Below, piece after piece: positions 1-50,316 of a stretch of 50,562 nt of DNA (position 1 is the stretch's first letter; every line of letters begins with the position of its first letter). The notes below the pieces were generated by a model. It saw only the letters and a program-made list of their open reading frames with translations, was not told where the DNA came from and did no database searches. The stretch lies in IMG/VR virus record IMGVR_UViG_3300045915_000028; one strand, 5' to 3'. Origin of the DNA: a virus. The position numbers and the translations under genes were made by a program.

Positions 1-61
1 CCCTGGTCAGCGTCTTTGCCTCCGGAGCAGAAGGCCGCAGGTTCGAATCCTGCCGGGGGCA
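1..61 (+). tRNA. 3' two-thirds of tRNA-Arg (anticodon CCG); 5' acceptor/D-stem part is outside the window
   Basis: Anticodon stem TTTGC/GCAGA (15-19/27-31), loop CTCCGGA with CCG at 22-24, variable AGGCC, T-arm GCAGG-TTCGAAT-CCTGC (37-53), acceptor strand CGGGGGC plus discriminator A (54-61). Confidence 0.6.
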
Positions 62-123
62 CCCATCCCGGGTCGAGCATGGGGCCTCGGCCTGTCAGTA
101 ACCAGTCACGGTCCAGGCCACAA
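1..123. repeat. Left copy of exact 123-bp terminal direct repeat (att core/attL, or overlap of a circular assembly)
   Basis: Bases 1-123 match 50440-50562 base for base; the repeat is bounded by both window edges. Confidence 0.95.
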
Positions 124-326
124 ATCGCAGCGATCCGGTCGATCTCGTTGAGATCAATGACAAGGTGTCCGCGGAGCCTCTTCGAGAACGAGCTCGGTGT
201 GATCCCCATCGTCTTCGCGACGAGGTTGTTCTTGATTCCACGGGCGCTGAGGCCGATCCGCAGCCGGCCGGCAACCTCCATATGGAAGTCCGCACCATCA
301 GCGTTGAGGTCGATGACTGTGCTCAT
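1..326 (-). CDS. Immunity repressor, XRE/CI-type HTH; ORF has no stop before base 1 (reads through the att repeat, antisense to the tRNA fragment)
   Basis: ATG at 326-324; MSTVIDLNADGADFHMEVAGRLRIGLSARGIKNNLVAKTMGITPSSFSKRLRGHLVIDLNEIDRIAAICGLDRDWLLTGRG...; divergent from Cro-like gene; not in ORF track because it runs off the window. Confidence 0.8.
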   Translation of the reverse strand, partial: MSTVIDLNADGADFHMEVAGRLRIGLSARGIKNNLVAKTMGITPSSFSKRLRGHLVIDLNEIDRIAAICGLDRDWLLTGRGPMLDPGWVPPAGFEPAAFCSGGKDADQ

Positions 327-334
327 GAGCGAAA

Positions 335-362
335 ATCATACCCGCTGAGCGAATATCGGCAA
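335..362 (-). promoter_or_regulatory. Candidate repressor promoter (-35 TTGCCG, 16-nt spacer, -10 TATGAT; near-leaderless)
   Basis: Minus-strand hexamers at 362-357 and 340-335, about 8 nt upstream of ATG 326; consensus match only. Confidence 0.3.
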
Positions 363-373
363 ACAGTACGCCA

Positions 374-390
374 CACATTTCCCTGTGAGA
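374..390. promoter_or_regulatory. Operator-like site, copy 1 (CACATTTCCCTGTGAGA)
   Basis: Shares the 11-mer ATTTCCCTGTG (377-387) with the palindrome at 440-456. Confidence 0.4.
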
Positions 391-411
391 CACGCCGCAG
401 TCAGCCGGGGG

Positions 412-440
412 TTGACCAGAGGCAAGTAGTCGGCTACATA
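412..440 (+). promoter_or_regulatory. Candidate early rightward (cro) promoter (-35 TTGACC, 17-nt spacer, -10 TACATA)
   Basis: Hexamers at 412-417 and 435-440; GTG 448 lies 7 nt after the -10, consistent with a leaderless transcript. Confidence 0.35.
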
Positions 441-456
441 TTTCCCTGTGGGAAAT
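440..456. promoter_or_regulatory. Operator-like perfect palindrome ATTTCCC-TGT-GGGAAAT
   Basis: 17-bp perfect inverted repeat overlapping the candidate -10 and start codon of the Cro-like gene. Confidence 0.5.
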
Positions 457-675
457 TCATTGCCCGTGAGTGCCACGACGACGGCGATCCGTGTCGGGCT
501 CGCGCGTAAAAATAAGCCGCAGAGCGTTCTGGCGGATGTTCTTGATCTGTCGCAGCCTGCGATCCACCGCCGCATGTCCGGGCGGGTTTCCTGGCGCCTC
601 GACGAGCTGCAGGCCGTCGCCGACTACCTCGACGTGCCGTTGTCCGCGCTCATCGCGAGTGAGGACGTCGCGTGA
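448..675 (+). CDS. Cro-like HTH DNA-binding protein (start uncertain: GTG 448 or GTG 466)
   Basis: ...IRVGLARKNKPQSVLADVLDLSQPAIHRRMSGRVSWRLDELQAVADYLDVPLSALI; divergent from the repressor. Confidence 0.7.
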   Translation: MGNSLPVSATTTAIRVGLARKNKPQSVLADVLDLSQPAIHRRMSGRVSWRLDELQAVADYLDVPLSALIASEDVA

Positions 676-897
676 ATGCCGTGGGAACCCGAGACATTCA
701 CCCCCGAGCAGCGTTACGCCGCAGCGAAAGCCATCGTGCACGCACAGATACTCGTCTATCGGATGCGACTCCAACCGGCACAGTTCGGCCCGGAGCACGC
801 CGCCGCCGTCGAGAGTGCCTACCTACAGGTCGAAGACTTCCTGTCCATGATCCACGAGGATCTGTACGGACTCGACGGCGTGGAACCGCAGGTCTAG
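676..897 (+). CDS. Hypothetical protein (73 aa)
   Basis: ATG directly follows the TGA of the upstream gene; coding-like composition. Confidence 0.6.
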   Translation: MPWEPETFTPEQRYAAAKAIVHAQILVYRMRLQPAQFGPEHAAAVESAYLQVEDFLSMIHEDLYGLDGVEPQV

Positions 898-1553
898 CCG
901 CCGAGCATGGCCTGAATAGCCAGCTGGGTCGGAACCGCAGCGGCGATCTGGGCTGCAACGTTGCCGACGAACGGCCACGCCACAGTGTTCAACTTGTCCC
1001 GCCAGCGGTCCTTCCTCTTGCTGGCTGCGGTGGCACGAATCATCGCCGCTATCAGCCGTTCGACCGCATCCTGAAGGTGGAACTCGCCGACTGCGGCGTA
1101 ATTGTCAATGCACCAGTCGAGGTGGGCAATCACCTGCTTGACATGCTGCCGGAGCAGCGGGGGGATCGATTCGTCCTCATCGAGAAGTGCACGCACGTCG
1201 GAGCTGTAGGCCCGCAGTGCATCGAGTCCACCATCCTGCAGTTTCAGTACGAGTCCGTTGTCGAGACGGTCGGCCAAGTGCTCGAGGTTCTCCAGCGCGC
1301 TGTCATCGATGTGTTTCAGGTTCTTCTGGTTTTGCCACCCCTGGGGGTTGTGCAGGGTCAGTGCCACCCACTTATCGAAGTACTGCCGATACAGCGTGGT
1401 TTTGATTTTCGCGTCGTCCATCTGATCGAGCAATTCCTCGATGGCGTCGAGGTGTCGGACCGCGATCCGCTGCTCAGCCGGATCCGCGTGGTGCGAAGCG
1501 TTGGCGCGCCAGCGGGTCAGTTTCTCGTGCAGCAACTCGGCGGGGTTAGCCAT
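894..1553 (-). CDS. Hypothetical helical protein with C-terminal hydrophobic anchor (219 aa); candidate prophage-expressed accessory/defence gene
   Basis: Long clean ORF on the opposite strand to all neighbouring early genes; C-terminal WPFVGNVAAQIAAAVPTQLAIQAML; stop shares CTAG (894-897) with the convergent gene. Confidence 0.7.
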   Translation of the reverse strand: MANPAELLHEKLTRWRANASHHADPAEQRIAVRHLDAIEELLDQMDDAKIKTTLYRQYFDKWVALTLHNPQGWQNQKNLKHIDDSALENLEHLADRLDNGLVLKLQDGGLDALRAYSSDVRALLDEDESIPPLLRQHVKQVIAHLDWCIDNYAAVGEFHLQDAVERLIAAMIRATAASKRKDRWRDKLNTVAWPFVGNVAAQIAAAVPTQLAIQAMLGG

Positions 1554-1597
1554 GAAGGAATCGTAGGGGAAGCTCTCCTGACCACGGAGGCCAGCGC

Positions 1598-2209
1598 ATG
1601 AGCGGGCGCGAACGCAACGCGTTCAACGTGCCGACGGGCTTCTCCAGTTTCGCCGATTCTTCGCCGGTCTGCCCCGATTGCGGCCAGCGTCACCCCGGCG
1701 ACCGGACATGCACCGAGCACCGCGGATACCAGGCGCTGAATTCAGCCCGTGAGCACAGGATCCGGCGACGCGCCGAACTCGCCGGACGGCTATCCGCCCA
1801 GGTTAGCGACGCGGAACTCTATCCGTTGCTGCCGCTCTACGAGTTCGCCGATGGCGCTCGCGAGCTGGCCAAGACCGTTCGCGATCAACTTCTGATACTC
1901 GGTCGCGCCGGGCGAGTGAAAAGCCGCCCCGAAGTCGATCCGCGCGGCATTGATGTGATCCATCACAGACTCCTATCTCTGCACGGGCTCCTGACCCGTC
2001 ATGTGACCGGCGTGGACTCCCGCCGGTGGTTGCAGAGTAGGCAGTGGGTCCGGCGCGCCGCGCACCTGCTGGCGCGGCCGTCGGACACCACACACACAGC
2101 TTCCCCTCCGGCTGGAATGGTGACACCGGCCGTTGCAGGAGAGGGTGCCCCCGGGCCGGTATCCCCGATCCGCCGGCCCGGGGCGAGCACCCACGGAGGT
2201 GCCGCATGA
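1598..2209 (+). CDS. Hypothetical protein with CPDC...C..H zinc-like motif (203 aa as ORF; 3' third doubtful)
   Basis: GGAGG at 1584-1588 before ATG 1598; good codon bias to about 1790; ATGA overlap with next gene; rare codons and a strong hairpin after 1964. Confidence 0.45.
   Translation: MSGRERNAFNVPTGFSSFADSSPVCPDCGQRHPGDRTCTEHRGYQALNSAREHRIRRRAELAGRLSAQVSDAELYPLLPLYEFADGARELAKTVRDQLLILGRAGRVKSRPEVDPRGIDVIHHRLLSLHGLLTRHVTGVDSRRWLQSRQWVRRAAHLLARPSDTTHTASPPAGMVTPAVAGEGAPGPVSPIRRPGASTHGGAA
1790..1963 (-). CDS. Possible antisense small ORF (57 aa) nested in 1598..2209
   Basis: ATG 1963 preceded by AGGAG (1974-1970) at 6-nt spacing; by hand count its third-position GC exceeds that of the plus-strand frame over the same stretch; below the 60-aa ORF-track cutoff. 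Confidence 0.25.
   Translation of the reverse strand: MDHINAARIDFGAAFHSPGATEYQKLIANGLGQLASAIGELVERQQRIEFRVANLGG
2147..2184 (+). promoter_or_regulatory. GC-rich stem-loop (12 bp, one bulge) just upstream of the RBS of gene 2206
   Basis: GCCCCCGGGCCGG (2147-2159) pairs with CCGGCCCGGGGC (2173-2184); no T tract. Confidence 0.3.
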
Positions 2210-2544
2210 GCGCCGCCGAGAACGACCGCATCCGAACCGAATTCGCCGCCGCGCTCGACGCCGGCCACGGCACCATCGAAGTGGGCCGCACCGTCATCTG
2301 CGACCGCTGCGACACCGACCTCACCGGCGACCCACGATCCGGCGGGTTCCTGTTCGCCGGCTACGCCTACGGGCCGTGCTGCGCCGTGGACGGGCTCGCG
2401 TCTATCCGCCGGTACAACGAGGAGAACCACATCACGGCGTGGTGCCCGGCGGGGCTGTCGTTCGCTGATTGGGTGCGCGGGCTGCGCGGCTCGAACAACC
2501 GCATCACCGTGCACCCGGGCCACCCCGGCGGCGGCGCCCGATGA
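2206..2544 (+). CDS. Hypothetical Cys-rich protein (112 aa)
   Basis: GGAGG 2195-2199 then ATG 2206; MSAAENDRIRTEF... Confidence 0.7.
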   Translation: MSAAENDRIRTEFAAALDAGHGTIEVGRTVICDRCDTDLTGDPRSGGFLFAGYAYGPCCAVDGLASIRRYNEENHITAWCPAGLSFADWVRGLRGSNNRITVHPGHPGGGAR

Positions 2545-2738
2545 CCGTCTATCTCAGCACTCCCACGCAGGCCGCGAAGTTCGGCATGTTCCGAACGTGC
2601 GACCGGATCGACGACGCCCGCGGCAACCCGATCCTGATCGCCGACGCCCGCACATCAATGTGTGACTACCGGGTCGCGCTCGCCCAAGCCCTCGGAAAAC
2701 CGTGCGACAGAAACGGATACACCCCATGCCCATCCTGA
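2541..2738 (+). CDS. Hypothetical protein (65 aa)
   Basis: ATGA overlap with upstream stop. Confidence 0.55.
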   Translation: MTVYLSTPTQAAKFGMFRTCDRIDDARGNPILIADARTSMCDYRVALAQALGKPCDRNGYTPCPS

Positions 2739-3295
2739 ACCTGATGTGCGACGCCACCGTCACCAGCCCCACCAGCGGGCACACCTGCCACTGCGGACGC
2801 CTCCCGCACACCGGTAAACATTCCTGCCCCGCCTGCGGGGTGGTATGGGCCGACGACGAGTATCCGATCATCGGTGAGCAACCCGCCTGCGGCAGTGAGT
2901 TTTTCCGCTCGTTGAGCATCGCCGATGATCGGATCACCGAACTGGAATCGTTGCGTACCAAGGTTGCCGACCTGACCGCCCTCAACGACGAGCTGCAGAA
3001 CACGCAAGCCGAAATGCTCGCCCAGACCGACCGTGACGTCGTGTCCGCCGGCATATGCCCGTGCGGGTCGGTGATCGAGATCCGTGACAGCTCTATCAGT
3101 GTCACGGCCGAGGAAAACGCTGCTGCCGCGGCCGCTGTGGCCGAGCTGCGCCGCCGCGGACCACTCGGCGATGACCTGGACGCCAGGATCGTCGGCCGCG
3201 TGATCGACGCGATCAACCACACGCGTGCCAGCCAGGACGATGCTGCGATGCGCGACTGGCAGGATGCGCACGCTGATTGTGGGGACCGCTCATGA
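2726..3295 (+). CDS. Hypothetical protein with zinc-ribbon-like N-terminus and coiled-coil (189 aa)
   Basis: CHCG...CPAC motif; ELESLRTKVADLTALNDELQNTQAEML; start ATG 2726 overlaps upstream gene end. Confidence 0.65.
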   Translation: MPILNLMCDATVTSPTSGHTCHCGRLPHTGKHSCPACGVVWADDEYPIIGEQPACGSEFFRSLSIADDRITELESLRTKVADLTALNDELQNTQAEMLAQTDRDVVSAGICPCGSVIEIRDSSISVTAEENAAAAAAVAELRRRGPLGDDLDARIVGRVIDAINHTRASQDDAAMRDWQDAHADCGDRS

Positions 3296-3450
3296 CGCTT
3301 ATGACGATGCTCACGCTGATCGTGGGCCTGATCGCCGTGACGCGGTTCGTGGCGTCACTCAATGAGGCCCGTACCCGGTTGTCGGTCCTCGATGTGCTGG
3401 CGCAAAGCCCGGTCGCTGAGGCTGAGGCGATCCTGCGGGGTGCCCGGTGA
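3292..3450 (+). CDS. Small membrane protein (52 aa)
   Basis: ATGA overlap; MTLMTMLTLIVGLIAVTRFVASL... TM segment; below ORF-track cutoff. Confidence 0.5.
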   Translation: MTLMTMLTLIVGLIAVTRFVASLNEARTRLSVLDVLAQSPVAEAEAILRGAR

Positions 3451-3620
3451 GCCTCCCGGCGGCGGAGCGGGACTGCGCCGAATTGTTCCGCCGGCTCGCC
3501 GCGCTGACCGCCCGTGTCGAACGCCTCGAGGCGCACCGGCACGACTACACCGGCCGGAACGTGCTCGGCGTGCTCACCGAATACGAGACGTCATTGCCGC
3601 GCGGGATTGAGGACTTGTGA
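3447..3620 (+). CDS. Hypothetical protein (57 aa)
   Basis: GTGA overlap at both ends; translated by hand with no internal stop. Confidence 0.45.
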   Translation: MSLPAAERDCAELFRRLAALTARVERLEAHRHDYTGRNVLGVLTEYETSLPRGIEDL

Positions 3621-3778
3621 CCACCCCACTGCCGCCCAACCCGCTGCCGCTCACGCGTGAACAACGCATCGTGATGCACTACCACGTGCTCGCCGGACCG
3701 TTTCCCGGCCCGAACCGCGCGGCCATCGCCGCGATCCTCGCGCACCGGATCGTCGACCTCGAGGACGGCGCCGCATGA
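3617..3778 (+). CDS. Hypothetical protein (53 aa)
   Basis: GTGA overlap upstream, ATGA overlap downstream. Confidence 0.45.
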   Translation: MTTPLPPNPLPLTREQRIVMHYHVLAGPFPGPNRAAIAAILAHRIVDLEDGAA

Positions 3779-4014
3779 CGGTGACCACCACAACCAGGAT
3801 GACCGCGGCGTGCGCCACCTGCGGTGGCCGCATCGTCTACCACCCCCGCCACCCCGACGACCCGCCACCACGCACCGCAGCTATCAACGATGAAAACCGT
3901 TGGGCGCACACCGATCCCACTGACTGGATGAGCCACCCGCACCGCGCCCACCCGAAGACCGGTCCGTCCCGTGAATCCACATACCTCGGGCACGGGACGG
4001 ACCACCCAAAGTAG
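3775..4014 (+). CDS. Hypothetical protein (79 aa)
   Basis: ATGA overlap; ORF track. Confidence 0.55.
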   Translation: MTVTTTTRMTAACATCGGRIVYHPRHPDDPPPRTAAINDENRWAHTDPTDWMSHPHRAHPKTGPSRESTYLGHGTDHPK

Positions 4015-4073
4015 ACGGCCGCCGCCCCTCACCCGGGGCGACGGCCACAACCCACAGAAGAAAGGCCCTTTCC

Positions 4074-4379
4074 GTGAGCACCACCGATCCTACCCAGTGG
4101 CCCGATCTGCCGCTGTTCCACGCAGACCGGTGGGTCGTCACCGATGACGACATCGCCGTGTGGTCCGACATCACCTACATGCGGACCCTCGTCGACGAGC
4201 TCGGCATACTGTGCGCCCGCACAGGTGAGGCGATCACCGACGCGGGTGTGATCGAGCACCAGGTCGACGCGGTGCTCGCGCCGTGGCCGGGTGACCTGGT
4301 GGCCGACATGCTGGCCGCGTGGCGGGCATCCACCGGCCCCGGGCCCGCCCGCCTACCAGTGGAGCGGGTGCCCGCATGA
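4074..4379 (+). CDS. Hypothetical protein (101 aa)
   Basis: GTG start after GAAAGG; coding-like sequence. Confidence 0.6.
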   Translation: MSTTDPTQWPDLPLFHADRWVVTDDDIAVWSDITYMRTLVDELGILCARTGEAITDAGVIEHQVDAVLAPWPGDLVADMLAAWRASTGPGPARLPVERVPA

Positions 4380-4714
4380 TCCGCCGCGCCATCGCCGAAG
4401 GACTGCACTGGATGATCGTGTTCGGGGTGATCCTCGGGGCGGCGCTATACCTGTCGGTGCCCGCCGACGCCGATGGCCTCATCACCTACCGGGAGCATAT
4501 GTACGCCGACGCGCTCGGCACCACGATCTGCGGCGCGCTCGCAGCCGACCCGAGCCCCGAAATGGTGTACGCGCTGTGGGAAGCGATCGCCTCCGAGGGG
4601 TTCACGGTCGACAACGCCGGCGATGTCATCGACCAGGCGGTGTTGTCGTGGTGCCCACGGTTCGCGCCGCTGCTGGAGTGGGTCGCCAACCAGTCGAGAG
4701 GGTCGCTGGTATGA
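4376..4714 (+). CDS. Membrane/secreted protein, DUF732-like (112 aa)
   Basis: ATGA overlap; N-terminal TM MIVFGVILGAALYLSV, then a Cys-pair domain. Confidence 0.55.
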   Translation: MIRRAIAEGLHWMIVFGVILGAALYLSVPADADGLITYREHMYADALGTTICGALAADPSPEMVYALWEAIASEGFTVDNAGDVIDQAVLSWCPRFAPLLEWVANQSRGSLV

Positions 4715-4857
4715 CGCACCGCGACGAGGTCATCGCCCCCACCGCCACACTTGTCATCGAACGGCTCGACGCCGCCCAGCAGTTGATCGAAATCGGCTGG
4801 TGCCAAACAGCATCCAGCATCATCAACGAACGCGGCCCCCGGTATTACTGCGCGTGA
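4711..4857 (+). CDS. Hypothetical protein (48 aa)
   Basis: ATGA overlap with upstream stop. Confidence 0.4.
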   Translation: MTHRDEVIAPTATLVIERLDAAQQLIEIGWCQTASSIINERGPRYYCA

Positions 4858-4929
4858 TCACATTGTTTCTGCGCGCCAAGAACACCGTCGCGATCGCAGC
4901 AGCCAACCCACAGTCGGCGGGGGCCTGAA

Positions 4930-5226
4930 TTGGACACACAGCAGGGGTTCACGACGCAGTACGCGATCCGGCTGCCCGACGGCACCCTGTTCACCACCCA
5001 ACATGGTTACGGGGACTGCCCGGCGTTGCCAGTGGTGTTCGACACGCTGACCGACGCCCAGCACGCCCTGTGCCATCTGCGCCGCCAAGCCTCGATGTTC
5101 GGCATCACAGACCTAGCGGCATGCATCGAACAAAGGATCTGCTCACCGTTCTCCGTGACCGACCCCAGCGTCGACTTCGCCGAGCAGGTCATGAGATGGG
5201 TTGCGCGGCAAGGCGGCAAACCATGA
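4930..5226 (+). CDS. Hypothetical protein (98 aa, TTG start)
   Basis: ORF track; ATGA overlap with downstream gene. Confidence 0.55.
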   Translation: MDTQQGFTTQYAIRLPDGTLFTTQHGYGDCPALPVVFDTLTDAQHALCHLRRQASMFGITDLAACIEQRICSPFSVTDPSVDFAEQVMRWVARQGGKP

Positions 5227-5513
5227 CCCACGCTATCGACATGTCACCGGATGCGAATCTTGACCGGGTCGGGCGTCTGGCATCGGACCTCGGCTATCGC
5301 ATCCGCGACGAAGAACCGCGCCGCTTGTTCGACGAACTGGTGTTGCTGTGCCGATACCATCCGGCGAAAGCAGCCCAACTGCTGATGTGTTTGGCGGCAT
5401 GGTTCGACGTCGACGAGGACACATCGGTTCTGGTTGAGCGTGCGCGGGCAGTCACCGAATCACGTGTCACGGCCGTCCTGCAGAAGCCGTCATCCGGGGC
5501 GGTCGCGTCATGA
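5223..5513 (+). CDS. Hypothetical protein (96 aa)
   Basis: ATGA overlaps at both ends. Confidence 0.6.
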   Translation: MTHAIDMSPDANLDRVGRLASDLGYRIRDEEPRRLFDELVLLCRYHPAKAAQLLMCLAAWFDVDEDTSVLVERARAVTESRVTAVLQKPSSGAVAS

Positions 5514-5857
5514 CGATGACAGTCAAGCGTGGCCGCAAGCGCCGCGACTTCAGCGCCTGCGACATGGCGTTGGTGGACGAGATGGCCGTCGAATTGGCCT
5601 ACCGCGGAACCATGATGCGGCTCAACGCCCACGAACGGGTCGCTGCCGTAAGGATGATGCTGGGCCAGGTGCCCACCGGTGAGATCGCCCGCCGCTGCGC
5701 AACCCATCACAGGGAGATACACCGGATCGCGCGGGCCCTCGACACGATCCGCTGCCCGCGGTGCCGCCGGTACACATTCCACGATGCCGGTGTGTTGGGC
5801 CGCCATATCGACAAGCGGAGCGCCTTGTGCGTGATGTCGGGCCAGGTGATCACATGA
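5510..5857 (+). CDS. HTH DNA-binding protein with C-terminal zinc-ribbon-like CPRC (115 aa)
   Basis: RVAAVRMMLGQVPTGEIARRCATHHREIHRIARAL; ATGA overlap. Confidence 0.55.
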   Translation: MTMTVKRGRKRRDFSACDMALVDEMAVELAYRGTMMRLNAHERVAAVRMMLGQVPTGEIARRCATHHREIHRIARALDTIRCPRCRRYTFHDAGVLGRHIDKRSALCVMSGQVIT

Positions 5858-6825
5858 GCAATTCGCACATCGTGGCAGTGCACCGGCCGGGCGAACGCGG
5901 ATGGATCGCACCGGGATCCGAACAGCACCGAGCAATGATGAGCCCGTCGAAAGCCGCTGCGGTGCTGGGGTTCTCACGCTGGCAGTCCCCTTATGCCCTG
6001 TGGATGGAAATGTCGGGCCGCGTCGAACCGGATCCACCGAAAGACATCTTCGATGTCGGTCACGACGCCGAACCGTATATGGCGGCGCGGTGGCGGCGCC
6101 TTAACCCCGGGTGGCTGCTCTCACCGGATGAAGTCCAGTTCGTCATCGACCCTGAACATTTCGGGTTCCCCGCCGTGGTGACGTTGGATCGGCGTGCGGT
6201 GCGCGGCCGGGCACGCCGGGTTGTACAGTGCAAAATCGCGCGTGATCTCGACGACGCCCGCGTGTGGGGTGATGATCTCGCCGACAGTGATAGCGAAGCA
6301 CCCGCTGATTACGCCGCACAGGTTTTCACCGAAATGCTGTTCAGCGGGTACACCCGCCATGACGGGCATCTGATGGTCGCGGGCCCGTTCTGGGCGGAAA
6401 AGTGCTACCCGATCCGCTACGACGCGAACACCGCGGCCGGCCTGATCACCGAACTGCGCCGCTTCTGGGAATCACTGCGCCGTAACAAGCCTCCGCCGCT
6501 TGATGATTCGGTTGCCACCTACCAGACCGTACGCAAACAGCATCCCGACATCGACGCCGGCACCACGATCGAACTGGACGCCGGACTGGCAGCGTCCTAC
6601 CTCGAGGCGCTGGCCGAACAGAAGGACACCGAACGCCTGGTCCGCGGCCTGAAAACCGAAGTCCTCGACGCGATGGGCGACACCGAAACCGCGGTCTGCG
6701 GCCCCATCCGGGTCGCCAAACGCACCCCACACGCATCCGGCACGGTCGCGCTCACCGCGGCTCGCAAAACCACCGGAGCCGACATCCGAAACCTCTCCGC
6801 CCAACCCGAAGGAATGCCCGCATGA
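5854..6825 (+). CDS. RecE-like / YqaJ-family exonuclease (323 aa)
   Basis: SPSKAAAVLGFSRWQSPYALWMEM and D...QCK PD-(D/E)XK-like motifs; directly upstream of RecT. Confidence 0.7.
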   Translation: MSNSHIVAVHRPGERGWIAPGSEQHRAMMSPSKAAAVLGFSRWQSPYALWMEMSGRVEPDPPKDIFDVGHDAEPYMAARWRRLNPGWLLSPDEVQFVIDPEHFGFPAVVTLDRRAVRGRARRVVQCKIARDLDDARVWGDDLADSDSEAPADYAAQVFTEMLFSGYTRHDGHLMVAGPFWAEKCYPIRYDANTAAGLITELRRFWESLRRNKPPPLDDSVATYQTVRKQHPDIDAGTTIELDAGLAASYLEALAEQKDTERLVRGLKTEVLDAMGDTETAVCGPIRVAKRTPHASGTVALTAARKTTGADIRNLSAQPEGMPA

Positions 6826-7973
6826 CCGACACCACCACCGCCGAACACACCCACACCGACAGCGTGCTCGGCCCGGACCTCAACCGTGGCGGTGAACTCG
6901 TCGTCACATCGACGGCCGGCAGTGTCGCCGAGAACTTCGACGAATTCGAGCTCGCTGTGCGCCGCATGCTCGGCCTCGAGGACGCCTCAGACGGCGAGCT
7001 GCGACTGTTCCACCACGTGTGCCAACAGTCCGGACTGGACCCGTTCAACCGCGAGGTCTACATGATCGGCCGCAACACCGAAGTCGAGGTGTGGGAGGAA
7101 AGCCCCGACACCAAGCAGCGCCGCAAGGTGAAACGCTGGATCACGAAGTACACGATCCAGGTCGCGATCAACGGATTCCGGCGCCGCGCCCGTGAAATCG
7201 CCACACTGCTCGGCGCCCGCTACGAGGTCGGCGAACCGGTGTGGTGCGGTGAGGACGGCGAATGGCGCGAAGTGTGGGGCCAGTCGAAACCACCGGTGGC
7301 GGCGAAGTTCACGGTGTTCCGAGACGGCCAGCCCTACAGCTTCGTCGCGCACTACAACGAGTTCGTCCAGACGACCCGCGAAGGCAACCCGAATTCGATG
7401 TGGTCGAAGATGCCGGCCAACCAGTTACGTAAGTGCGCCGAGGTAGGCGCGATTCAGATGGCGTTCCCCGAGCAGCTCGGCGGCCTGGTCCTCGACGAGG
7501 CAGCCCAACCCGGCATCATCGACGCGAACGGGCCGGCGGTGCGGCGTGAGCCGACGAAAGCGCGTGGTGTAGCCGCGCTGACGCAGCGCGTCGCCACAGT
7601 CGTGAACGCGGAAAACATTCCGGAAAATATTCCGGAAAATATTCCGCCGGATGTCACACCCGCGGCCGCTATGTCCCCCGCTTCCCGGAAGAAGTGGCTG
7701 AACCGCATGTTCGCGCTGCTGGCTGAGGCCGAATGCCCGGATCGTGAGGATCAGCTGATCGTGATCACCGGACTCGCCGGACTCGATGAGCTGCCCGAGC
7801 ATCGCGACGCGCTCAGCGACGACGAGTTGCGGACTGTCGTCAACGCCCTCAACGCCGCCAGCAAAGAGGGTCGTCTCGGCGTGGTCGTCACTGATCTCCT
7901 CGAAACTTGGGTTGCCCGGCAAACCAACACCGACACCGACACCGCCGCAACCGAATCCGAGACGGAGAACTGA
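6822..7973 (+). CDS. recT: RecT-family single-strand annealing protein with extended C-terminus (383 aa)
   Basis: LFHHVCQQSGLDPFNREVYMIGRN, KYTIQVAINGFRRRA, WSKMPANQLRKCAEVGAIQMAFPEQLGG. Confidence 0.8.
   Translation: MTDTTTAEHTHTDSVLGPDLNRGGELVVTSTAGSVAENFDEFELAVRRMLGLEDASDGELRLFHHVCQQSGLDPFNREVYMIGRNTEVEVWEESPDTKQRRKVKRWITKYTIQVAINGFRRRAREIATLLGARYEVGEPVWCGEDGEWREVWGQSKPPVAAKFTVFRDGQPYSFVAHYNEFVQTTREGNPNSMWSKMPANQLRKCAEVGAIQMAFPEQLGGLVLDEAAQPGIIDANGPAVRREPTKARGVAALTQRVATVVNAENIPENIPENIPPDVTPAAAMSPASRKKWLNRMFALLAEAECPDREDQLIVITGLAGLDELPEHRDALSDDELRTVVNALNAASKEGRLGVVVTDLLETWVARQTNTDTDTAATESETEN
7610..7645 (+). repeat. 3 x 12-bp tandem repeat (GAAAAYATTCCG) encoding ENIPENIPENIP inside recT
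   Basis: Read directly; a local AT-rich island in a GC-rich gene. Confidence 0.9.
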
Positions 7974-7978
7974 CCACC

Positions 7979-8350
7979 ATGGCCATGGTTAAGAACAAAC
8001 CGGCAGACCTCGAAAGCGGCAACACCGTCGACCCCACCCTACTCACGGACGAAATCGACGTCGCCTACATCAGTTTCTCGACGACGAACGTCAAGATCGA
8101 ATCACCGCCGGACCTGGGTGAGAACGTGACCCTCATGATCCACGGAAAATGCACCGCCGTTGGTGAGAAGGAAAACAAGGACGGCGAAATCCGCAACGTG
8201 CGCACCATCACCGTCACCTCAGCGCACAAACCCGGCAAACGACCAGTCGAAGACCCCAACCAAGGATCAATCTTCACGATCACCAGCACCGCCGACGGCA
8301 CCACCGTCGAACCATCCGACGATGATGACGAGGACGAGGTGTCGGGGTGA
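7979..8350 (+). CDS. Hypothetical protein with acidic C-terminal tail DDDDEDE (123 aa)
   Basis: ATG 7979 six nt after the recT stop; ORF track frame. Confidence 0.6.
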   Translation: MAMVKNKPADLESGNTVDPTLLTDEIDVAYISFSTTNVKIESPPDLGENVTLMIHGKCTAVGEKENKDGEIRNVRTITVTSAHKPGKRPVEDPNQGSIFTITSTADGTTVEPSDDDDEDEVSG

Positions 8351-8619
8351 TCGCCGTGCACATCAAACCCCGTACCGACGGCCGCTACGACATCCACATC
8401 CACGACCGCAGCCTCGACGGTGAGCTGCTCGTGTTCTCCAACCAGGGCTACGAGAATCAGGGCGACGCGGAACGGATTGTGCGTCGCCTCTTCGGATCGA
8501 CGAATCAGACCGTCGATCCCGATGGGAAGACAATTCCCGCGGTGAAACCCGATTTCGAGCACGTTGATCTGACCATCACCTACCTCGACGGCACCGGACG
8601 ACACGAGATGCTCCGATGA
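8347..8619 (+). CDS. Hypothetical protein (90 aa), possibly YegP/DUF1508-like
   Basis: GTGA overlap; RYDIHIHDRSLDGELLVFSNQGYENQGDAERIV. Confidence 0.5.
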   Translation: MIAVHIKPRTDGRYDIHIHDRSLDGELLVFSNQGYENQGDAERIVRRLFGSTNQTVDPDGKTIPAVKPDFEHVDLTITYLDGTGRHEMLR

Positions 8620-9893
8620 AACCCCAAGTGCAACTGGACAAACCACTCACAGCAGACCAGATCGCAGAGGTCCGGCGCATCGGCGACGAATGGTTCGACA
8701 TCGGACTGTCGACCGAACGGTGCGACCGGCCGGCAGCAGAGGCCGCAGTCCGGGCCGCATACCGCGCCGCGAAGATCGAGGAGCCACGGTTAGTGGTGTG
8801 GATGGAATCACCATTAGGTGGTGTCTTCGCGGCCGCCATGATCAAGGATCTCGGTAAGCCGGATAGCCAGCTCGGGGGCCAGCTCGGGGGCCAGCTCGGG
8901 GACCAGCTCGGGGACCAGCTCTGGGACCAGCTCTGGGACCAGCTCGGGGGCCAGCTCGGGGGCCAGCTCGGGGACCAGCTCGGGGACCAGCTCCGGGGCC
9001 AGCTCCGGGGCCAGCTCGGGGACCAGCTCGGGGACCAGCTCCGGGGCCAGCTCGGGGGCCAGCTCGGGGACCAGCTCGGGGACCAGCTCGGGGACCAGCT
9101 CTGGGACCAGCTCGGGGACCAGCTCGGGGACCAGCTCTGGGACCAGCTCGGGGACCAGCTCCGGGGCCAGCTCCGGGGCCAGCTCTGGGACCAGCTCTGG
9201 GACCAGCTCGGGGGCCAGCTCCGGGGCCAGCTCTGGGACCAGCTCGGACTCGAACTGTCACCCTGGTGGGACGCCTACTGGCTCGCCTACTACACCTGCG
9301 CCTTACCACTTGCCGGACTTGATAATTCGCCACGCCTCGAGACACTGGTAGCGGCCAACCGACTCCTCGGATGGTGGTGGCCGATGCGCGGTGCAGCGGT
9401 TCTCACCGACCGCCCCACCATCCTGTCGCGCGATCAACAGGGCCGGTTGCACAACGAGAGGGGGCCTGCGCTGGCCTATGCGGATGGCTACGCCTACCAC
9501 GGCTGGCACGGCACCCGCGTACCCGCCGATCTCATCGAAACCGGTTGGGATATCGAGCGGATCATGGCCGAACGCAACGCTGAGGTCCGGCGGTGCGCGA
9601 TTGAACGCATGGGCTGGGACCAGTTCGTCACGGCCGCTGAACTCACACTAGCTGACGAGGCCGACGATCCGGGGAATCCCGGCCAGGTGCTCCGCTTGTA
9701 TGACGTGCCCCGCACGGTGCTGGACCTACCGGTGCGGGTATTGGTGTGTGTCAACGCAACCCGGGAACGTGACGGCTCCCGGCACACATTCGGACTGACC
9801 GTCCCGACTGACTGCAAGACCGCGATCGCGGCCGCCGCATGGAGTTTCGGCGTCACAGCGAAGGAATACCGGCAGCTCGTCCGAGCCTGCTGA
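8616..9893 (+). CDS. Repeat-containing protein (425 aa): N-terminal domain, 32 tetrapeptide repeats, conserved-looking C-terminal domain of unknown function
   Basis: ATGA overlap; C-terminal [42 protein letters not shown]... looks globular. Confidence 0.75.
8865..9248 (+). repeat. 32 contiguous 12-bp tandem repeats G[G/A]CCAGCTC[G/T/C]GG, in frame, encoding ([GD]QL[GWR])x32
   Basis: Counted unit by unit from sequence and translation; most variation at unit positions 2 and 10; first unit starts AGC and last ends GGA. Confidence 0.95.
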
Positions 9894-9921
9894 ACCAACA
9901 ATCGAAGGGAAAACTACTTAA

Positions 9922-10329
9922 ATGGCAACAACTTTGGAACTGACCGCCGCCACCGGCGTGGCTGTGCTCACCGACATTGACGACGTCGACATCCCCTTAC
10001 TCGCCGGTGTCCAACGTCAGGGTGATGTCCTGATCCGGCCGACAATCGGAATCCTCGCTGCCACACCCGTCCCGGCCGCTGGCACGCCGGTGGTGCGGGG
10101 CGAGAACGGCGGCAACACGCATGCTGTCTACGCCGCTGATGGGCCCGTGTTCTGCGACGTGACAGCCGTGTCGGCCACTGATCTGCGGGTCGCACTGTTG
10201 ACGGTCCCCGAGGGTTCCACCGCCTACCTGGGCCATCCCGAGCATGGCTTTCTCGGCATCGCACCGGGTTCGTATGAGGTGCGCCGGCAGCGGGAGATGG
10301 CCGAGGAAATTCGGATGGTCGCGGACTAA
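9922..10329 (+). CDS. Hypothetical protein (135 aa)
   Basis: GAAGGG RBS region then ATG; coding-like. Confidence 0.65.
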   Translation: MATTLELTAATGVAVLTDIDDVDIPLLAGVQRQGDVLIRPTIGILAATPVPAAGTPVVRGENGGNTHAVYAADGPVFCDVTAVSATDLRVALLTVPEGSTAYLGHPEHGFLGIAPGSYEVRRQREMAEEIRMVAD

Positions 10330-10791
10330 GTGAGTCTCACACTGACTGACTTGTTCGCCGGTGCGGGTGGTTCGACCACGGGTGCGGTGTCCGTGCCCGG
10401 TGTCACCGTAGCCATCGCCGCCAATCACTGGCAACTGGCCATCGACTCGCATTCGGCTAATCATCCTGACACCGAGCATGTGCGGAACAACACGAGCAAA
10501 GGTGACGGAGCGGAGATGGTCACCCCGGTCAGTGAGGTGGTGCGCACCGTCACCACAGCAGGGCATCAATCGCTACTAGCCGGTGGTCCGACGGTCGACA
10601 TCGACGACGTGTTGTTCCGCATGTTGGAGCCGCATGAAATCGCTGCGGCGCAGGACTTTCCGCGTGGATACACGATCAAGGGGAACAAGCGGGAGAAGGT
10701 CCGCCAGATCGGTGGAGCGGTGTGCCCGCCGTGCGCCCGGGATCTGGTCGGCGTGGTGGCTGAATCACTGGGGATGGCCCTATGCCCATAA
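10330..10791 (+). CDS. DNA (cytosine-5) methyltransferase remnant lacking the catalytic core (153 aa)
   Basis: Motif I DLFAGAGG at the N-terminus and C-terminal RTVTTAGHQ / FRMLEPHEIAAAQDFP / KVRQIGGAVCPP blocks are present; no PC(Q) or ENV motifs in between. Confidence 0.6.
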   Translation: MSLTLTDLFAGAGGSTTGAVSVPGVTVAIAANHWQLAIDSHSANHPDTEHVRNNTSKGDGAEMVTPVSEVVRTVTTAGHQSLLAGGPTVDIDDVLFRMLEPHEIAAAQDFPRGYTIKGNKREKVRQIGGAVCPPCARDLVGVVAESLGMALCP

Positions 10792-11147
10792 GACCAGAGA
10801 ACAAGTCGAGGTATCCGTCCGACTGGAAACAGATCAGCCACCGCATCCGCTTCATCCGCGCCGGCTCACGCTGCGAATGTGAAGGCGAATGCGGCCGCGG
10901 CACCCACGCGGGTCGATGCCCAAACATTCACGGACTCAACGCATACGGCACCGGATCTAAAGTCATTCTCACCGTCGCCCACCTGAACCACGCCCCTGAG
11001 GACTGCCGCGACGCCAACCTCCGCGCGATGTGCCAGGGATGCCACCTGCACTACGACATCGAACACCACGCCCAGACCGCCCAACGCACCCGCACCGCCG
11101 CACTCGAAGCCCAAATGGAACCACTGTTCAACATCGACGGGGGGTGA
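10782..11147 (+). CDS. HNH endonuclease-like zinc-binding protein (121 aa)
   Basis: CECEGECG...LTVAHLNHAPEDCRDANLRAMCQGCHLHYD. Confidence 0.6.
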   Translation: MPIRPENKSRYPSDWKQISHRIRFIRAGSRCECEGECGRGTHAGRCPNIHGLNAYGTGSKVILTVAHLNHAPEDCRDANLRAMCQGCHLHYDIEHHAQTAQRTRTAALEAQMEPLFNIDGG

Positions 11148-40973: not shown

Positions 40974-41983
40974 CCGAGTTCGGTTTGTCCTCGGTGGCTG
41001 TCACCGCCGGGCTCGACGACGCCGCCGAGTGCAACCGGATCGTGGAGACGGGCGCTACGTGGGCCAGGGTCGTGATCCCGTGGAACTACGTCGAGGCGTG
41101 GAACGACGAAAACAATTGGAGTCCGGCGCATCTGCAATGGGGCGCCATTGATTCGGCGATCAACGCCGCCCGCGCGCGCGGGCTCAAGATCCTCGGGCTG
41201 ATCCAGGGACCGGCCCCGGCGTGGGCGGCCGACCCGGATCAGCCCGCCTATTCCACGACCCCGCTGAATGTGTCCACGTATGCGCGGTTCTGCGCCCAGG
41301 TCGCCGATCGCTACCGCGGCAAGGTGCGGCATTGGGAGATCTGGAATGAGCCGAACCTGCGGCTGTATTGGACCAACCCCGATCCGAAAGCGTATGCGGC
41401 GCTGCTGATCGCGGCATCAAAGGCCATCAAAGCCGTCCAACCGGACGCGTTCGTCGTCAGCGGCGGTCTGTCGTCGTGGGCCGAGGGCGGCATCGCGCCC
41501 ATCCCGTACTTGGGCGGCATGGCTGATGCCGGGGTGGCCGACCACATCGACGCCGTAGGCCTACACCCCTACACGCATCCGTATTTCTTCGACGCGGACC
41601 CGCAGCGCCGTTGGGACGCTGTGGAATACGTGCTGTCCGCGGGGTATCAGCCGTGGATCACGGAGTACGGGCAGCCGACCGGAACCAGTCATATCTCGGT
41701 GGATGAACTCGACCAGGCCGACCGGCTCGCCGCGGTGCTCGAGCACGCCGCCGGGCGGCCGGGCATGGGTCCGATCTTCTTCCACGGCACTTTGGACTTG
41801 GGCGCTGATCCGCGGGAACCGGAGCAGAACTTCGGCCTGTACCGGCGCGACGGCACGCCGAAACCCGTTGTCGCGCGGCTCAAAAGCGGACAGCCGCCAC
41901 CACCGCCACCGCCACTGCCGCCGAGCAAGCCGAGCTTCCTGGAACGATTGTGGGCGCTGCTGTTCGGTGGGCGCTGGCCGTAG
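40970..41983 (+). CDS. Glycoside hydrolase, GH5-like (clan GH-A), with Pro-rich C-terminus (337 aa, GTG start)
   Basis: HWEIWNEPN (acid/base Glu), HPY, and WITEYG (nucleophile Glu) about 105 aa downstream. Confidence 0.65.
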   Translation: MTEFGLSSVAVTAGLDDAAECNRIVETGATWARVVIPWNYVEAWNDENNWSPAHLQWGAIDSAINAARARGLKILGLIQGPAPAWAADPDQPAYSTTPLNVSTYARFCAQVADRYRGKVRHWEIWNEPNLRLYWTNPDPKAYAALLIAASKAIKAVQPDAFVVSGGLSSWAEGGIAPIPYLGGMADAGVADHIDAVGLHPYTHPYFFDADPQRRWDAVEYVLSAGYQPWITEYGQPTGTSHISVDELDQADRLAAVLEHAAGRPGMGPIFFHGTLDLGADPREPEQNFGLYRRDGTPKPVVARLKSGQPPPPPPPLPPSKPSFLERLWALLFGGRWP

Positions 41984-41989
41984 AAAGGG

Positions 41990-42103
41990 ATGCCCATGCG
42001 CTATGTCACTGTCGCCGTAGCCACTGTCGCCGCCGCTGTGGTCGCGGGCGTCGGCGCCATGTATGTGCTTCTGTCGCTGGCCGATGAGCCGCTGTGGTTC
42101 TGA
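41990..42103 (+). CDS. Small single-TM protein (37 aa)
   Basis: GAAAGGGA then ATG; MPMRYVTVAVATVAAAVVAGVGAMYVLLSL... Confidence 0.4.
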   Translation: MPMRYVTVAVATVAAAVVAGVGAMYVLLSLADEPLWF

Positions 42104-42222
42104 TGTGGCACTGGGACATCCTCACTGTCCTCGTTCTTCCGGTGCTGCTCTGCACGTGTCTGCTCGGCGTCGGGATCGGCGTCGCGGCCGACGAATACCA
42201 CCACCGCCACCCGAAAGGATGA
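42103..42222 (+). CDS. Small single-TM protein (39 aa)
   Basis: TGATG junction; MWHWDILTVLVLPVLLCTCLLGVGIGVAA... Confidence 0.4.
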   Translation: MWHWDILTVLVLPVLLCTCLLGVGIGVAADEYHHRHPKG

Positions 42223-42226
42223 CGCT

Positions 42227-42553
42227 GTGAATCACCTTGTCAATCTGATCGTCGGCAAGCTCATCGAGCGCCTGACGCCGCTGCTGCTCGACGCGCTGAC
42301 CAAACTCGGGCAGCAGCTGCTGGAGAAGATCGTCGCCCTGTTGCCGGTGATTGTCGCGGCGTCCACGAAGGCGATCACGGAGCAACTGGCGTCGAAACTT
42401 CCGCTGCCGAACCTGCCCGAGTTGGCCGAGAAGATCCGCGCCGACGCCAGCGCCGTCCTGCCCGATGACGTGGACCTGCCGTTCATCAGCGATTGGGGCG
42501 AGAAGGTGCTGGGTATCGACCTGAGCGACCTAATCACGGGCAGGCGCGCATGA
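42227..42553 (+). CDS. Hypothetical protein upstream of lysin A (108 aa)
   Basis: GAAAGGA then GTG; helical/hydrophobic N-terminal half. Confidence 0.55.
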   Translation: MNHLVNLIVGKLIERLTPLLLDALTKLGQQLLEKIVALLPVIVAASTKAITEQLASKLPLPNLPELAEKIRADASAVLPDDVDLPFISDWGEKVLGIDLSDLITGRRA

Positions 42554-42705
42554 GCCAAATGCCATTCTGGCTTCACGAGCTTGTCCATCCAAGTCACAAG
42601 GTGACCAGCGACATAACCCAGTATCGACTCTGCAATGTGTGCTGGGACTGCCCGACCACATGGGTATGGCCCGCAAGGTCATACCAGGAGGGGCGGCGCC
42701 CGTGA
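42550..42705 (+). CDS. Possible small protein (51 aa)
   Basis: ATGA overlap upstream and GTGA overlap downstream, but weak codon bias. Confidence 0.3.
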   Translation: MSQMPFWLHELVHPSHKVTSDITQYRLCNVCWDCPTTWVWPARSYQEGRRP

Positions 42706-43931
42706 GTCTCGGCCTGACGCGCGACTCCAAACCAGACGCGGTGGCGCGGGCCATCATCGCCGAAGCGCAACGCCGCGGATACTCCCGCGACGAGACGATA
42801 GCCGTGCTCGCCACTGCGATACAGGAATCGGGGCTACGACCCGGCGCGGTGTCGCCAAATGGTAAGTGGCGAGGAATTTTTCAACAAGACACCAGCTACC
42901 CCGGCCGCGACGACCCGAACCTGAACATCACGGCGTTCATGGACCGATTGGATGTCAAGCGACGCTCACCCGGTGCGAGCCCGGACCCATGGAAAACCGT
43001 GTTCTGGCTACAGCAGCGGCCGGCCGACGAGACCGCGGAACTGTCCTACCAGCGTGGCCGCAAAGGGTATTTGACCGAGATCAAGCACCGCGCCGCCGAG
43101 GCGGCCGACTACGTGGACAGATACGGAGGTCAAGTGGCCGAAGTGAAGAAGATCGACCAGAACCGCCCCGACTTCAATGAGATTGACCAACTCGGCTGGG
43201 ACGCTGACGATCCGCACGGCAGCGTGCGCAGCCGCCCGCCGATCAACTTCTTCCTACACACCCAGGAGGGCGGCGGAAACGCCACTGACCTGGCGGCGTT
43301 CCTGCGCGGCACCAAAGGCAATGGCGCAGTGTCCTACCACTACACCATCCATCAGGCACCGGATGGTGGCGTAACCGTGGTCGACGTGATCGACACTGAC
43401 CTCTATTCGTGGAGCGTGCTGAACGCCAACGTCTTCAGCATCAACCTGTGCTTCGCCGGGTCGCGGGCGGCATGGTCGCGTGAGCAGTGGCTCAAGCAGG
43501 GCAAGGCGATCGACGTTGCCGCCTACCTGGCCGTGCAGGACTGCCGCAAATACAACTTCGCCACATCGGTGATCGCGCCGCCCTACGGGCAGCCCCGCCC
43601 CGGAATCTCAGACCACAAATACGTCACACAATGTCTCGGTGTCGGCACCCACACCGATGTCGGGGACAACTTCCCGTGGGACGTTTTCGCGGCGGCGGTC
43701 GCAAAGTACGTCAATGCCGATACGCCCGGTGCGCAACCGCCGCCGGTTCTGCCGGCGCCGCCGAAGGGTCCACCTGACAGCCTTTCGGATCGTCAACTGC
43801 TGGAGGACATATGGGAGCAATTGCGCGGCGACGATGGCAAGGGTTGGAAACAGCTTGGCAAGAACGACAAGGGTCAGGATCTGACGCTCGTCGACGCCGT
43901 TTCCGAGATCAAGAAATCGGTCGTTAAGTGA
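42702..43931 (+). CDS. lysA: Lysin A: endolysin with N-acetylmuramoyl-L-alanine amidase (PGRP/Amidase_2) domain (409 aa; ORF opens at 42639)
   Basis: AGGAGG 42684-42689 before GTG 42702; FLHTQEGGGNATDLAAFL...VSYHYTI...HTDVGDNFPWDVF. Confidence 0.8.
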   Translation: MSLGLTRDSKPDAVARAIIAEAQRRGYSRDETIAVLATAIQESGLRPGAVSPNGKWRGIFQQDTSYPGRDDPNLNITAFMDRLDVKRRSPGASPDPWKTVFWLQQRPADETAELSYQRGRKGYLTEIKHRAAEAADYVDRYGGQVAEVKKIDQNRPDFNEIDQLGWDADDPHGSVRSRPPINFFLHTQEGGGNATDLAAFLRGTKGNGAVSYHYTIHQAPDGGVTVVDVIDTDLYSWSVLNANVFSINLCFAGSRAAWSREQWLKQGKAIDVAAYLAVQDCRKYNFATSVIAPPYGQPRPGISDHKYVTQCLGVGTHTDVGDNFPWDVFAAAVAKYVNADTPGAQPPPVLPAPPKGPPDSLSDRQLLEDIWEQLRGDDGKGWKQLGKNDKGQDLTLVDAVSEIKKSVVK

Positions 43932-45075: not shown

Positions 45076-45084
45076 GAGTATCCG

Positions 45085-45336: not shown

Positions 45337-45340
45337 AACC

Positions 45341-46096: not shown

Positions 46097-46105
46097 CGTG
46101 TATTT

Positions 46106-49455: not shown

Positions 49456-50316
49456 TCACGCCGCGGTGCGGGTTCCACGGAACGGGTCGAGTCGGTTTAT
49501 CGCGTGGTGGCGACGCGCATCGGGCACCTTCAGGTAACCCTGAGTCGTCGAAATAGATGAATGCCGGAGCAGCTCCTTGACGGTCAGCAGGTCCGCGCCG
49601 TCATCGAGCAGTGTGGTGCCGAACCAGTGCCGAAGTTTGTGCGGGGTTCCTGGCACGTCGGCGCGGCGCATCGCCAGACTGATGATGTGCGAGACCGATT
49701 TGCCTAGGACCGGCTCCCCTGGCCTCGTCGAGTTCGCTGGGAACCAGAATCCGTGCGTCGGCATCGTCTTGGCGGCATCGACCAGCAACGGATGTAGCGG
49801 CAGGGTGCGGGCCTTGCGGTTCTTGCCTTCCACCCAGATCGACGGAACGGTCAGGTCGAGGTGTTCGCCTCGCACCTTGGCGATCTCGCTTACCCGCAAC
49901 CCCGCGAGCACCGCCAGCAAGATCATGACTCGGGTCCGGTGGTGCATCCGCGTGGTCAGCAGCTTCACTACCGACGCATCGCTGACTGGCCTCGGTGCGC
50001 GGTCCGGCCAGCGCGGTGCGCCCACCTTCACAGTCGGATCGTCGAGACGGTGGTCATCAACCTGCAGCCACCGGTACCACGCGCGCAAATAACCGAAGTA
50101 TGTGCAGGCGGTACCGTCCGACCAATCGTGTTGGTGATCGGCCAGCCAGCGCATGATGTCCATCGCTGTAGCTGACGCTGGCTGCACGTTCCGTTCTTCA
50201 GCAAACTGCGCGAGCACCCGCACCCGTTCGGAGATGACCGGCATGGTCATCCGTCGACTGTGCATCCACAGCATCCACTCATCGAGATATGCGATTCCCT
50301 GCGTGTTCATCGGCAA
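49456..50316 (-). CDS. int: Tyrosine integrase (286 aa)
   Basis: AGLRVSEI, HKLRHWFGTTLL, LLRHSSISTTQGYL catalytic R/H-x-x-R/Y blocks; adjacent to the att repeat. Confidence 0.9.
   Translation of the reverse strand: MPMNTQGIAYLDEWMLWMHSRRMTMPVISERVRVLAQFAEERNVQPASATAMDIMRWLADHQHDWSDGTACTYFGYLRAWYRWLQVDDHRLDDPTVKVGAPRWPDRAPRPVSDASVVKLLTTRMHHRTRVMILLAVLAGLRVSEIAKVRGEHLDLTVPSIWVEGKNRKARTLPLHPLLVDAAKTMPTHGFWFPANSTRPGEPVLGKSVSHIISLAMRRADVPGTPHKLRHWFGTTLLDDGADLLTVKELLRHSSISTTQGYLKVPDARRHHAINRLDPFRGTRTAA

Follow-up and report, generated by a model that had tools for sequence, protein, structure and literature searches.

The rep, int and cro-like genes

We analyzed a 50,562-nt stretch of viral DNA ("the window" refers to this whole stretch) in which a gene for a putative immunity repressor, rep, is split between the two ends. 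The rep ORF starts at an ATG at 326, reads leftward and reaches base 1 with no stop codon, after 108 2/3 codons. When the ends are joined through one copy of a terminal repeat, the frame remains open through the join and ends at a TGA (50309-50307), to give a product of 152 aa. The join is continuous in an independent contig (L049). The original prediction, made from the sequence alone, had described this helix-turn-helix (HTH) ORF, open at base 1 and divergent from a Cro-like gene, and its 152-aa joined form with a stop at 50307-50309; the ORFs, the translation of the joined sequence and a match to PHROG 2328 all agree with it. It had also likened the locus to the rep-attP-int layout of integration-dependent immunity. 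That layout is present. The rep and int genes are adjacent and in the same direction, the attachment core lies inside rep, and the cro-like gene is divergent from them across an intergenic region of ~120-140 bp (Table 1).

Rep is an XRE-type HTH protein. Matches to Pfam HTH_31/HTH_3 were weak, and the match to PHROG 2328 ("transcriptional repressor") had an E-value of 3.3e-21. Over aa 2-93, Rep shares 62-63% identity with the immunity repressors of Cluster N phages, including Charlie gp35 (tblastn, 1e-31). Judged by sequence, Rep and the Charlie-type (Cluster N) repressor are direct homologues, and Rep belongs to the PHROG 2328 family. AlphaFold gave pLDDT values >83 for aa 10-90 and <50 for aa 99-152; that is, Rep is predicted to have a folded HTH domain followed by a disordered segment from aa 99 to aa 152.

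The end of rep overlaps the start of int. The two genes share an ATGA (50307-50310), in which the integrase ATG is at 50310-50308. An overlap had been predicted, with the integrase ATG at 50316; the overlap is there, and the codon at 50316 is TTG. The exact 284-aa Int is found in public gene calls, not the version from TTG 50316. The sole Pfam match in Int is the catalytic domain, at residues 124-265 of 284. Int is 79% identical to that of the uncultured relative L045, 63% to that of Rem711, 55-57% to Cluster N integrases (55.8% for Charlie) and 26% to that of BPs. Its C-terminus is TAA and those of its relatives are RAA, LAS, AVS or IVA, endings that by sequence appear compatible with a C-terminal tag for proteolysis. 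Among the 66 ORFs, none matched an excisionase-type or HTH_17 Pfam family at E<=1e-3, a weak negative given how diverse recombination directionality factors are.

The rep-cro intergenic region contains a 15-bp palindrome, TTTCCCTGTGGGAAA, that is a candidate operator. It lies directly after the -10 of a putative PR and is found at the matching position in L044, L045, L047 and L048 and at the identical rep-cro intergenic place in Charlie. A related half-site is likewise conserved with Charlie and the uncultured relatives. The sequence TTTCCCTGTG has two exact copies, restricted to this intergenic region. A possible PR is TTGACC (411-416) with TACATA (434-439). Public gene calls start the cro-like gene at 466.

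Table 1. Features of the immunity and integration region, with positions in the window.
Feature	Position	Strand	Comment
Terminal redundancy, copy 1	1..123		exact 123-nt match to 50440-50562; assembly overlap, not attL
Terminal redundancy, copy 2	50440..50562		in L057 and L058, IS left end directly after 50562
attP common core, 49 nt (inferred)	17..65	+	identical to 3' part of tRNA-Arg(CCG); duplicate at 50456-50504
IS200/IS605 insertion point, within rep codon 68	123..124		co-occurring variant; the window is IS-free
rep, 5' part	1..326	-	codons 1-108 and two bases of codon 109; HTH at residues ~10-90
rep, 3' part in phage form	50307..50439	-	third base of codon 109, codons 110-152, TGA
Tyrosine integrase gene, int	49456..50310	-	284 aa, ending ...GTRTAA; Pfam Phage_integrase 3e-23
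Cro-like HTH gene, divergent from rep	448..675	+	Pfam BetR 4.9e-9, HTH_3 1.6e-5; PHROG 4583 1.8e-18
Candidate Prep, upstream of rep	335..362	-	TTGCCG-16-TATGAT; consensus match only
Candidate operator at PR	441..455		15-bp palindrome, TTTCYCTRTGRGAAA, conserved in relatives
Related half-site, ATTTCCCTGTGAGA	376..389

The terminal repeat and the form of the genome

The first 123 nt of the window recur exactly at its end (1-123 is identical to 50440-50562), as had been noted. The original prediction took this repeat to be the att core and the window to be a prophage bounded by attL and attR. We gathered contigs from public assemblies through exact matches to window proteins and compared them to the window by BLAST. 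In a 154-kb JGI contig (L049/L055), window positions 41115-50562 are fused to positions 1-10897 through one copy of the 123 nt, so that int-rep-cro is continuous DNA across the junction, with a single copy of the repeat between int and cro. This contig has two phage units with a spacing of exactly 50,439 bp. The junction is thus seen as continuous DNA in independent contigs that are 100% identical. Outside the repeat copies, the contigs compared had phage DNA or an IS. A host flank had been expected to the left of base 1. Among the six distinct contexts listed per look-up (16 and 22 contigs), none had host DNA beside base 1 or 50562.

The sequence of the repeat also does not fit an att core of this length. 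Identity to a tRNA gene extends over 49 nt (17-65), and positions 66-123 encode an ordinary part of Rep, conserved in every relative. The right edge of the repeat, between 123 and 124, is the insertion point of an IS, and contigs end there. Because the joined form is continuous in independent contigs and the IS lies exactly at this edge, we conclude that the repeat, which is exact and no chance match, is a technical overlap. It reflects the redundant ends of an assembly that was circular or concatemeric, not an attL/attR pair. One of its edges is fixed by a fork in the assembly graph, namely the polymorphism between copies with and without the IS. More generally, an exact terminal repeat need not be an att site even when it holds tRNA sequence.

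What the window holds is the circular phage (attP) form, 50,439 bp in length, of the genome of a temperate mycobacteriophage, and the repressor that it encodes is therefore the full-length, 152-aa Rep. A contig of 52,405 bp, of which one end was seen, fits the arithmetic of 50,439 + 1,839 (the IS) + a 127-nt overlap. The short contig L059 stops at window position 50501, the 3' end of the tRNA sequence; an end of this kind would be consistent with a branch of the graph at a host tRNA but proves nothing. A megablast search of window positions 1-6000 against phage records gave no match at the nucleotide level. An exact-pattern scan of viral_contigs for the 123/124 junction and for the window-specific tRNA-like variant was also negative. 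The variant was unmatched in metagenome_contigs as well, a result of little weight since that collection evidently lacks the source samples.

Neither the predicted 108-aa and the 152-aa forms of Rep nor the 174-aa IS fusion had an exact match in a collection of 15 billion proteins. In public gene calls, rep is uncalled on contigs with the whole or the IS-disrupted gene, and the public rep products are cut partials, all on Logan contigs (L054, L058 and L059). Because rep goes uncalled, its absence from the protein collection is weak evidence or none. The JGI calls on L049 have, at the full junction, only a 28-aa ORF corresponding to the last 28 residues of Rep; an RNA call may have masked the CDS, which is a guess.

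The attachment core and tRNA-Arg(CCG)

We found that 49 nt inside rep are identical to the 3' part of a tRNA-Arg(CCG) gene; the match begins with the 5' strand of the anticodon stem and runs to the 3' end of the tRNA. The match is exact to the tRNA-Arg(CCG) genes of two prophage-form relatives, L044 and L002, and extends leftward by 0 nt. The 5' half of this tRNA is GCCCCCGTAGCTCAGGGGATAGAGCGTC. The anticodon loop, CTCCGGA, is at window positions 20-26. Read antisense, the core is rep codons 88-103 (WVPPAGFEPAAFCSGG). The original prediction had proposed a tRNA-Arg(CCG) site, and the exact core and the truncation of relatives at this place support it. It had counted about 41 codons of the repeat as antisense to the tRNA; this holds for about 21 of them (window 1-65), and the remainder (66-123) belong to the ordinary coding sequence of rep.

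To the left of the core, window positions 1-16 together with base 50439 form a degenerate 5' part of a tRNA with a 2-nt insertion and a deleted D arm. The Rfam tRNA model scores 32.3 bits, above the gathering score, over 62 nt of this structure (50439 plus 1-61; L049 9325-9386). ARAGORN found no tRNA in the window, because the tRNA copy at attP has no D arm. We considered that positions 1-16 might be an authentic D loop from the tRNA of another host. This was rejected: at 50439 the stretch passes directly into phage DNA, and in L049 the D-arm-less tRNA-like structure lies in continuous phage DNA. Apart from the deleted D arm, the tRNA-like copy is almost complete, and it has a G-U pair in the anticodon stem. 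In the attP sites of relatives, identity to the tRNA is already lost in the anticodon loop, and these relatives do not have the degenerate 5' half that this phage keeps.

Based on the attL and attP sequences of relatives, we infer that crossover would take place in the 49-nt stretch. The host and its tRNA sequence are likewise deduced by analogy to the relatives; among the contigs found, there was no attL or attR junction of this exact phage. Simulated recombination between the attP of the window and the tRNA gene of L044 yielded an intact tRNA-Arg(CCG) and a Rep of 108 aa that consists of aa 1-103 followed by RRSIP. The viral-only tail is thus aa 104-152, or 49 residues, of which codons 104-108 are at window positions 3-17 and codon 109 starts at positions 1-2. 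The original prediction had sequence being replaced after about codon 108, with loss of a 44-residue tail. Replacement would instead follow codon 103, and the two figures of 108 agree by coincidence, 103 shared residues plus RRSIP.

Relatives in integrated and free states

Both states are documented among uncultured relatives that share the tRNA-Arg(CCG) core and have repressors 47-74% identical to Rep: the free forms L045/L046 (P0009), L047 (P0004) and L048 (P0001), and the prophages L044 (P0002) and L002 (P0010). In the two prophages, the repressor is 108-109 aa long, ends in ...CSGGRRSIP (...EPAAFCSGGRRSIP), and terminates within a complete tRNA-Arg(CCG). These ends are encoded by the tRNA antisense strand, and the stop is a TGA in the D loop. 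In L044, the host genes argS-lysA-hom-thrC-thrB are next to the prophage-form rep. In the viral forms, rep runs on to int and encodes 152 aa (L045/L046), 155 aa (L047) or 132 aa (L048). The integrases of these viral-form relatives are 72-79% identical to Int of the window. L045 shares the ATGA overlap, and L048 has phage genes on both sides.

Two more distant repressors, P0048 and P0071, also terminate in ...EPAAFCSGGRRSIP. Because they share this ending, tRNA-Arg(CCG) is a recurrent target. In seven lineages, rep is open up to the start of int or to within about 60 nt of it. A scan of genome_contigs with the repressor alignment gave 42 loci, of which only L002-L004 were close; the rest were generic HTH proteins.

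The tail of Rep is conserved with P0009 and P0004, and the tails of the uncultured relatives diverge from that of this phage. The C-terminus of the 152-aa form is ...HLIKLCR; as had been noticed in the original prediction, there is no ssrA-like AA (or AS) ending. The closest full-length relatives end in KICR, VKI and VTG, versus SAA for Charlie, DAA for Rem711 and KAS for BPs. The last four codons of rep overlap the start region of int, where the DNA is conserved in L045 and L047. The KLCR ending may therefore be set by int.

An IS200/IS605 element in rep

A variant with an IS in rep co-occurs with the phage. The IS is 1,839 bp and encodes TnpA Y1 (99 aa) and TnpB (417 aa). By BLAST it lies exactly between positions 123 and 124 in L053/L060, L056, L051, L052, L057 and L058, from several samples. 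Copies of the IS are at L053 1580-3418, L056 128-1966 and L050 7610-9448. Plasmids of Mycobacterium and Mycolicibacterium carry copies that are 78-83% identical to it. Both flanks seen end in CAA immediately before the IS: GGCCACAA in the phage and TTCAGCAA at another site.

The insertion splits rep in codon 68 and would leave 67-68 native residues followed by IS-encoded sequence. Loss of immunity and uncoupling of int from Prep are predicted for this variant. Since many otherwise 100%-identical copies in several samples carry the IS inside rep, the switch described below would be broken in part of the population. One conceivable way for such phages to avoid lysogeny in nature is insertion of an IS200/IS605 element at this codon. 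Together with the free form and the integrated relatives, the IS-disrupted variant makes up a natural series at one tRNA-Arg(CCG) site.

The contig with tandem phage units (JGI 3300045940, Ga0491427_0000012; L049, L050 and L055; 154,278 bp) also has about 51 kb of host-like DNA with genes for a PIN toxin, an Arr-ms rifampin ADP-ribosyltransferase and TetR proteins. We rejected the idea that this contig is a true integration; it is the IS, and not the tRNA core, that joins the host-like DNA to the phage. The contig is a cointegrate or concatemer formed through the IS, or else a chimera of the assembly.

Comparison to known systems

Integration-dependent immunity has been described in mycobacteriophages of Clusters G, I, N and P, in Gordonia phages and in prophages of M. 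abscessus. Its defining features are given in PMC3694055 and PMC4557955; they include an integrase tagged at its C-terminus for proteolysis and lacking an extra arm-binding domain, and the absence of xis/RDF. Three systems served to establish it, Charlie among them (Broussard et al. 2013, as summarized in PMC3694055), and the Charlie repressor is homologous to Rep. Beyond the similarity in Rep and Int (about 56% identity for Int), Charlie and the other Cluster N phages share with this phage the cro / rep-attP-int order and the use of the 3' part of a tRNA as an attP inside rep. A tail motif is also in common (TVVRPFP and KVLTFP). There are differences. Charlie Rep is 123 aa and ends in DSAA, and Rep of this phage is 152 aa and ends in KLCR. 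Relatives with a Charlie-type core (L003 and L004) sit at tRNA-Lys, whereas the core here is from tRNA-Arg(CCG). In addition, the structural genes are nearer to those of M. abscessus prophages (portal, 70%) and Cluster Z than to those of Cluster N.

The layout also resembles that of BPs (Cluster G, gp33/gp32), the best-studied system. The BPs attP is annotated inside gene 33, the rep stop and the int start overlap by 4 nt, and in both phages the repressor frame reads the antisense of the tRNA T-arm as GFEP. The viral and prophage forms of the BPs repressor are 136 aa and 103 aa, compared to 152 aa and a predicted 108 aa for Rep. Unlike this phage, BPs has the core of another tRNA-Arg isoacceptor. 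Its Int is 398 aa as annotated, and its repressor is no close homologue of Rep. The closest integrase is from Cluster Z (Rem711 and 32HC), where the portal is 57% identical. In Rem711, as here, there is a 4-nt overlap of rep with int and a divergent cro-like gene, but the repressor is of another sequence and ends in KDAA, and Int is annotated as longer at the N-terminus (347 aa).

A proposed integration-dependent switch

We think it likely that the region is a Charlie-type integration-dependent immunity cassette, with a working switch, in the circular attP form of a mycobacteriophage. The candidate Prep would transcribe both rep and int, and translation of int is probably coupled to that of full-length rep through the ATGA overlap. 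The phage form of Rep would be unstable or inactive owing to its disordered 49-aa tail. The level of Int, set in part by its own C-terminal tag (here TAA), would decide whether integration occurs. Int would then recombine attP with the host tRNA-Arg(CCG); this would rebuild the tRNA, swap the tail for RRSIP and a stop codon to give the 108-aa Rep, and also sever int from Prep. The 108-aa form would keep PR shut at the conserved palindrome. The KLCR end with no AA tag, and the many phage copies in several samples with an IS in rep, count against such a switch. If it operates as proposed, this phage is one further lineage of a known kind of immunity, with an atypical tail, and anyone who clones Rep as a marker of immunity should take the 108-aa form in place of the 152-aa ORF.

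The absence of an AA degron makes it testable which part of the tail inactivates long Rep. It is possible, if on balance doubtful, that the switch works but that the long form is inactivated by an internal tail motif (a degron or adaptor site), or by autoinhibition by the disordered tail, instead of by a terminal ssrA-like tag. This would fit with an ending set by the start of int. It would also fit with the motif (A/G)(D/K/T)V(L/I/V)P(F/I/L)(P/R/Q), which we found in tails only: those of the window, P0001, P0004, P0009, Charlie, P0027, BPs, Malithi and P0039. The motif lies 10-20 residues past the tRNA-encoded segment, with variable wobble bases. In the window it is at 50365-50382 (Rep aa 112-117), and it has the same position in L045, L047, L048, Charlie, BPs and Malithi; there were no matches in the N-terminal domains of the repressors compared. 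Against this, the motif was defined post hoc from these data, several repressors (Rem711, Clown, Tarzan, P0056 and others) lack it or have a degenerate version, and in BPs a single change near the C-terminus, A135E, stabilizes the long form (PMC4557955). We take the motif as a lead only. It is unlikely that this internal motif, and not a terminal ssrA-like tag, switches off long Rep and is the common determinant of the class across the otherwise unrelated repressors of BPs, Charlie, Malithi and the tRNA-Arg(CCG) group.

A reading that we consider quite improbable is that attP does lie in rep but has no regulatory effect; that is, long and short Rep would both be active, and the overlap would reflect a compact genome and a tRNA target. 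The 152-aa form has no ssrA-like C-terminus, and the long and short forms of the BPs repressor bind DNA similarly in vitro (PMC4557955), both of which would fit. However, the long form was shown to be inactive in the homologous Charlie and BPs systems (PMC3694055). In addition, the frame of rep is kept open to, or nearly to, int in the seven lineages, and the tail motif is conserved at the level of amino acids.

There is very little chance that the window is an integrated prophage cut at attL and attR, with the 123-nt repeat as att core and a repressor already truncated and continuing into host sequence beyond base 1: the gene order is that of a prophage permutation (rep-cro-early-late-int) and tRNA-like sequence sits within the repeat, but int-rep-cro is continuous through a single copy of the repeat in L049/L055, a host attB flank would not carry the conserved rep coding sequence of 66-123, the right edge of the repeat is the exact IS site at which contigs end, positions 1-16 depart from a real tRNA in their insertion and missing D arm, identity between phage and tRNA spans 49 nt and not 123, and the contexts listed for base 1 and 50562 had no adjoining host DNA.

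Other genes in the window

Three leftward genes (47507-49396, minus strand) lie between the lysis region and int and would be int-proximal in the prophage orientation. Such int-proximal leftward positions are typical of genes expressed in lysogens. The three include a gene for a DUF732 protein that resembles secreted proteins or lipoproteins (48283-48741) and a 184-aa ORF with a lipobox-like LGGC. The early region (5761-7973, plus strand) encodes a RecE-like exonuclease (YqaJ) and RecT pair, by Pfam and PHROG matches.

A 425-aa DUF6745 protein is encoded at 8616-9893 (plus strand). Its gene contains a repeat at 8867-9247 of ~32 tandem 12-nt units, which encodes an array of (G/W/R)(D/G)QL tetrapeptides. 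The window and the JGI contig are 99.97% identical, and the few differences may fall in this 12-nt repeat array.
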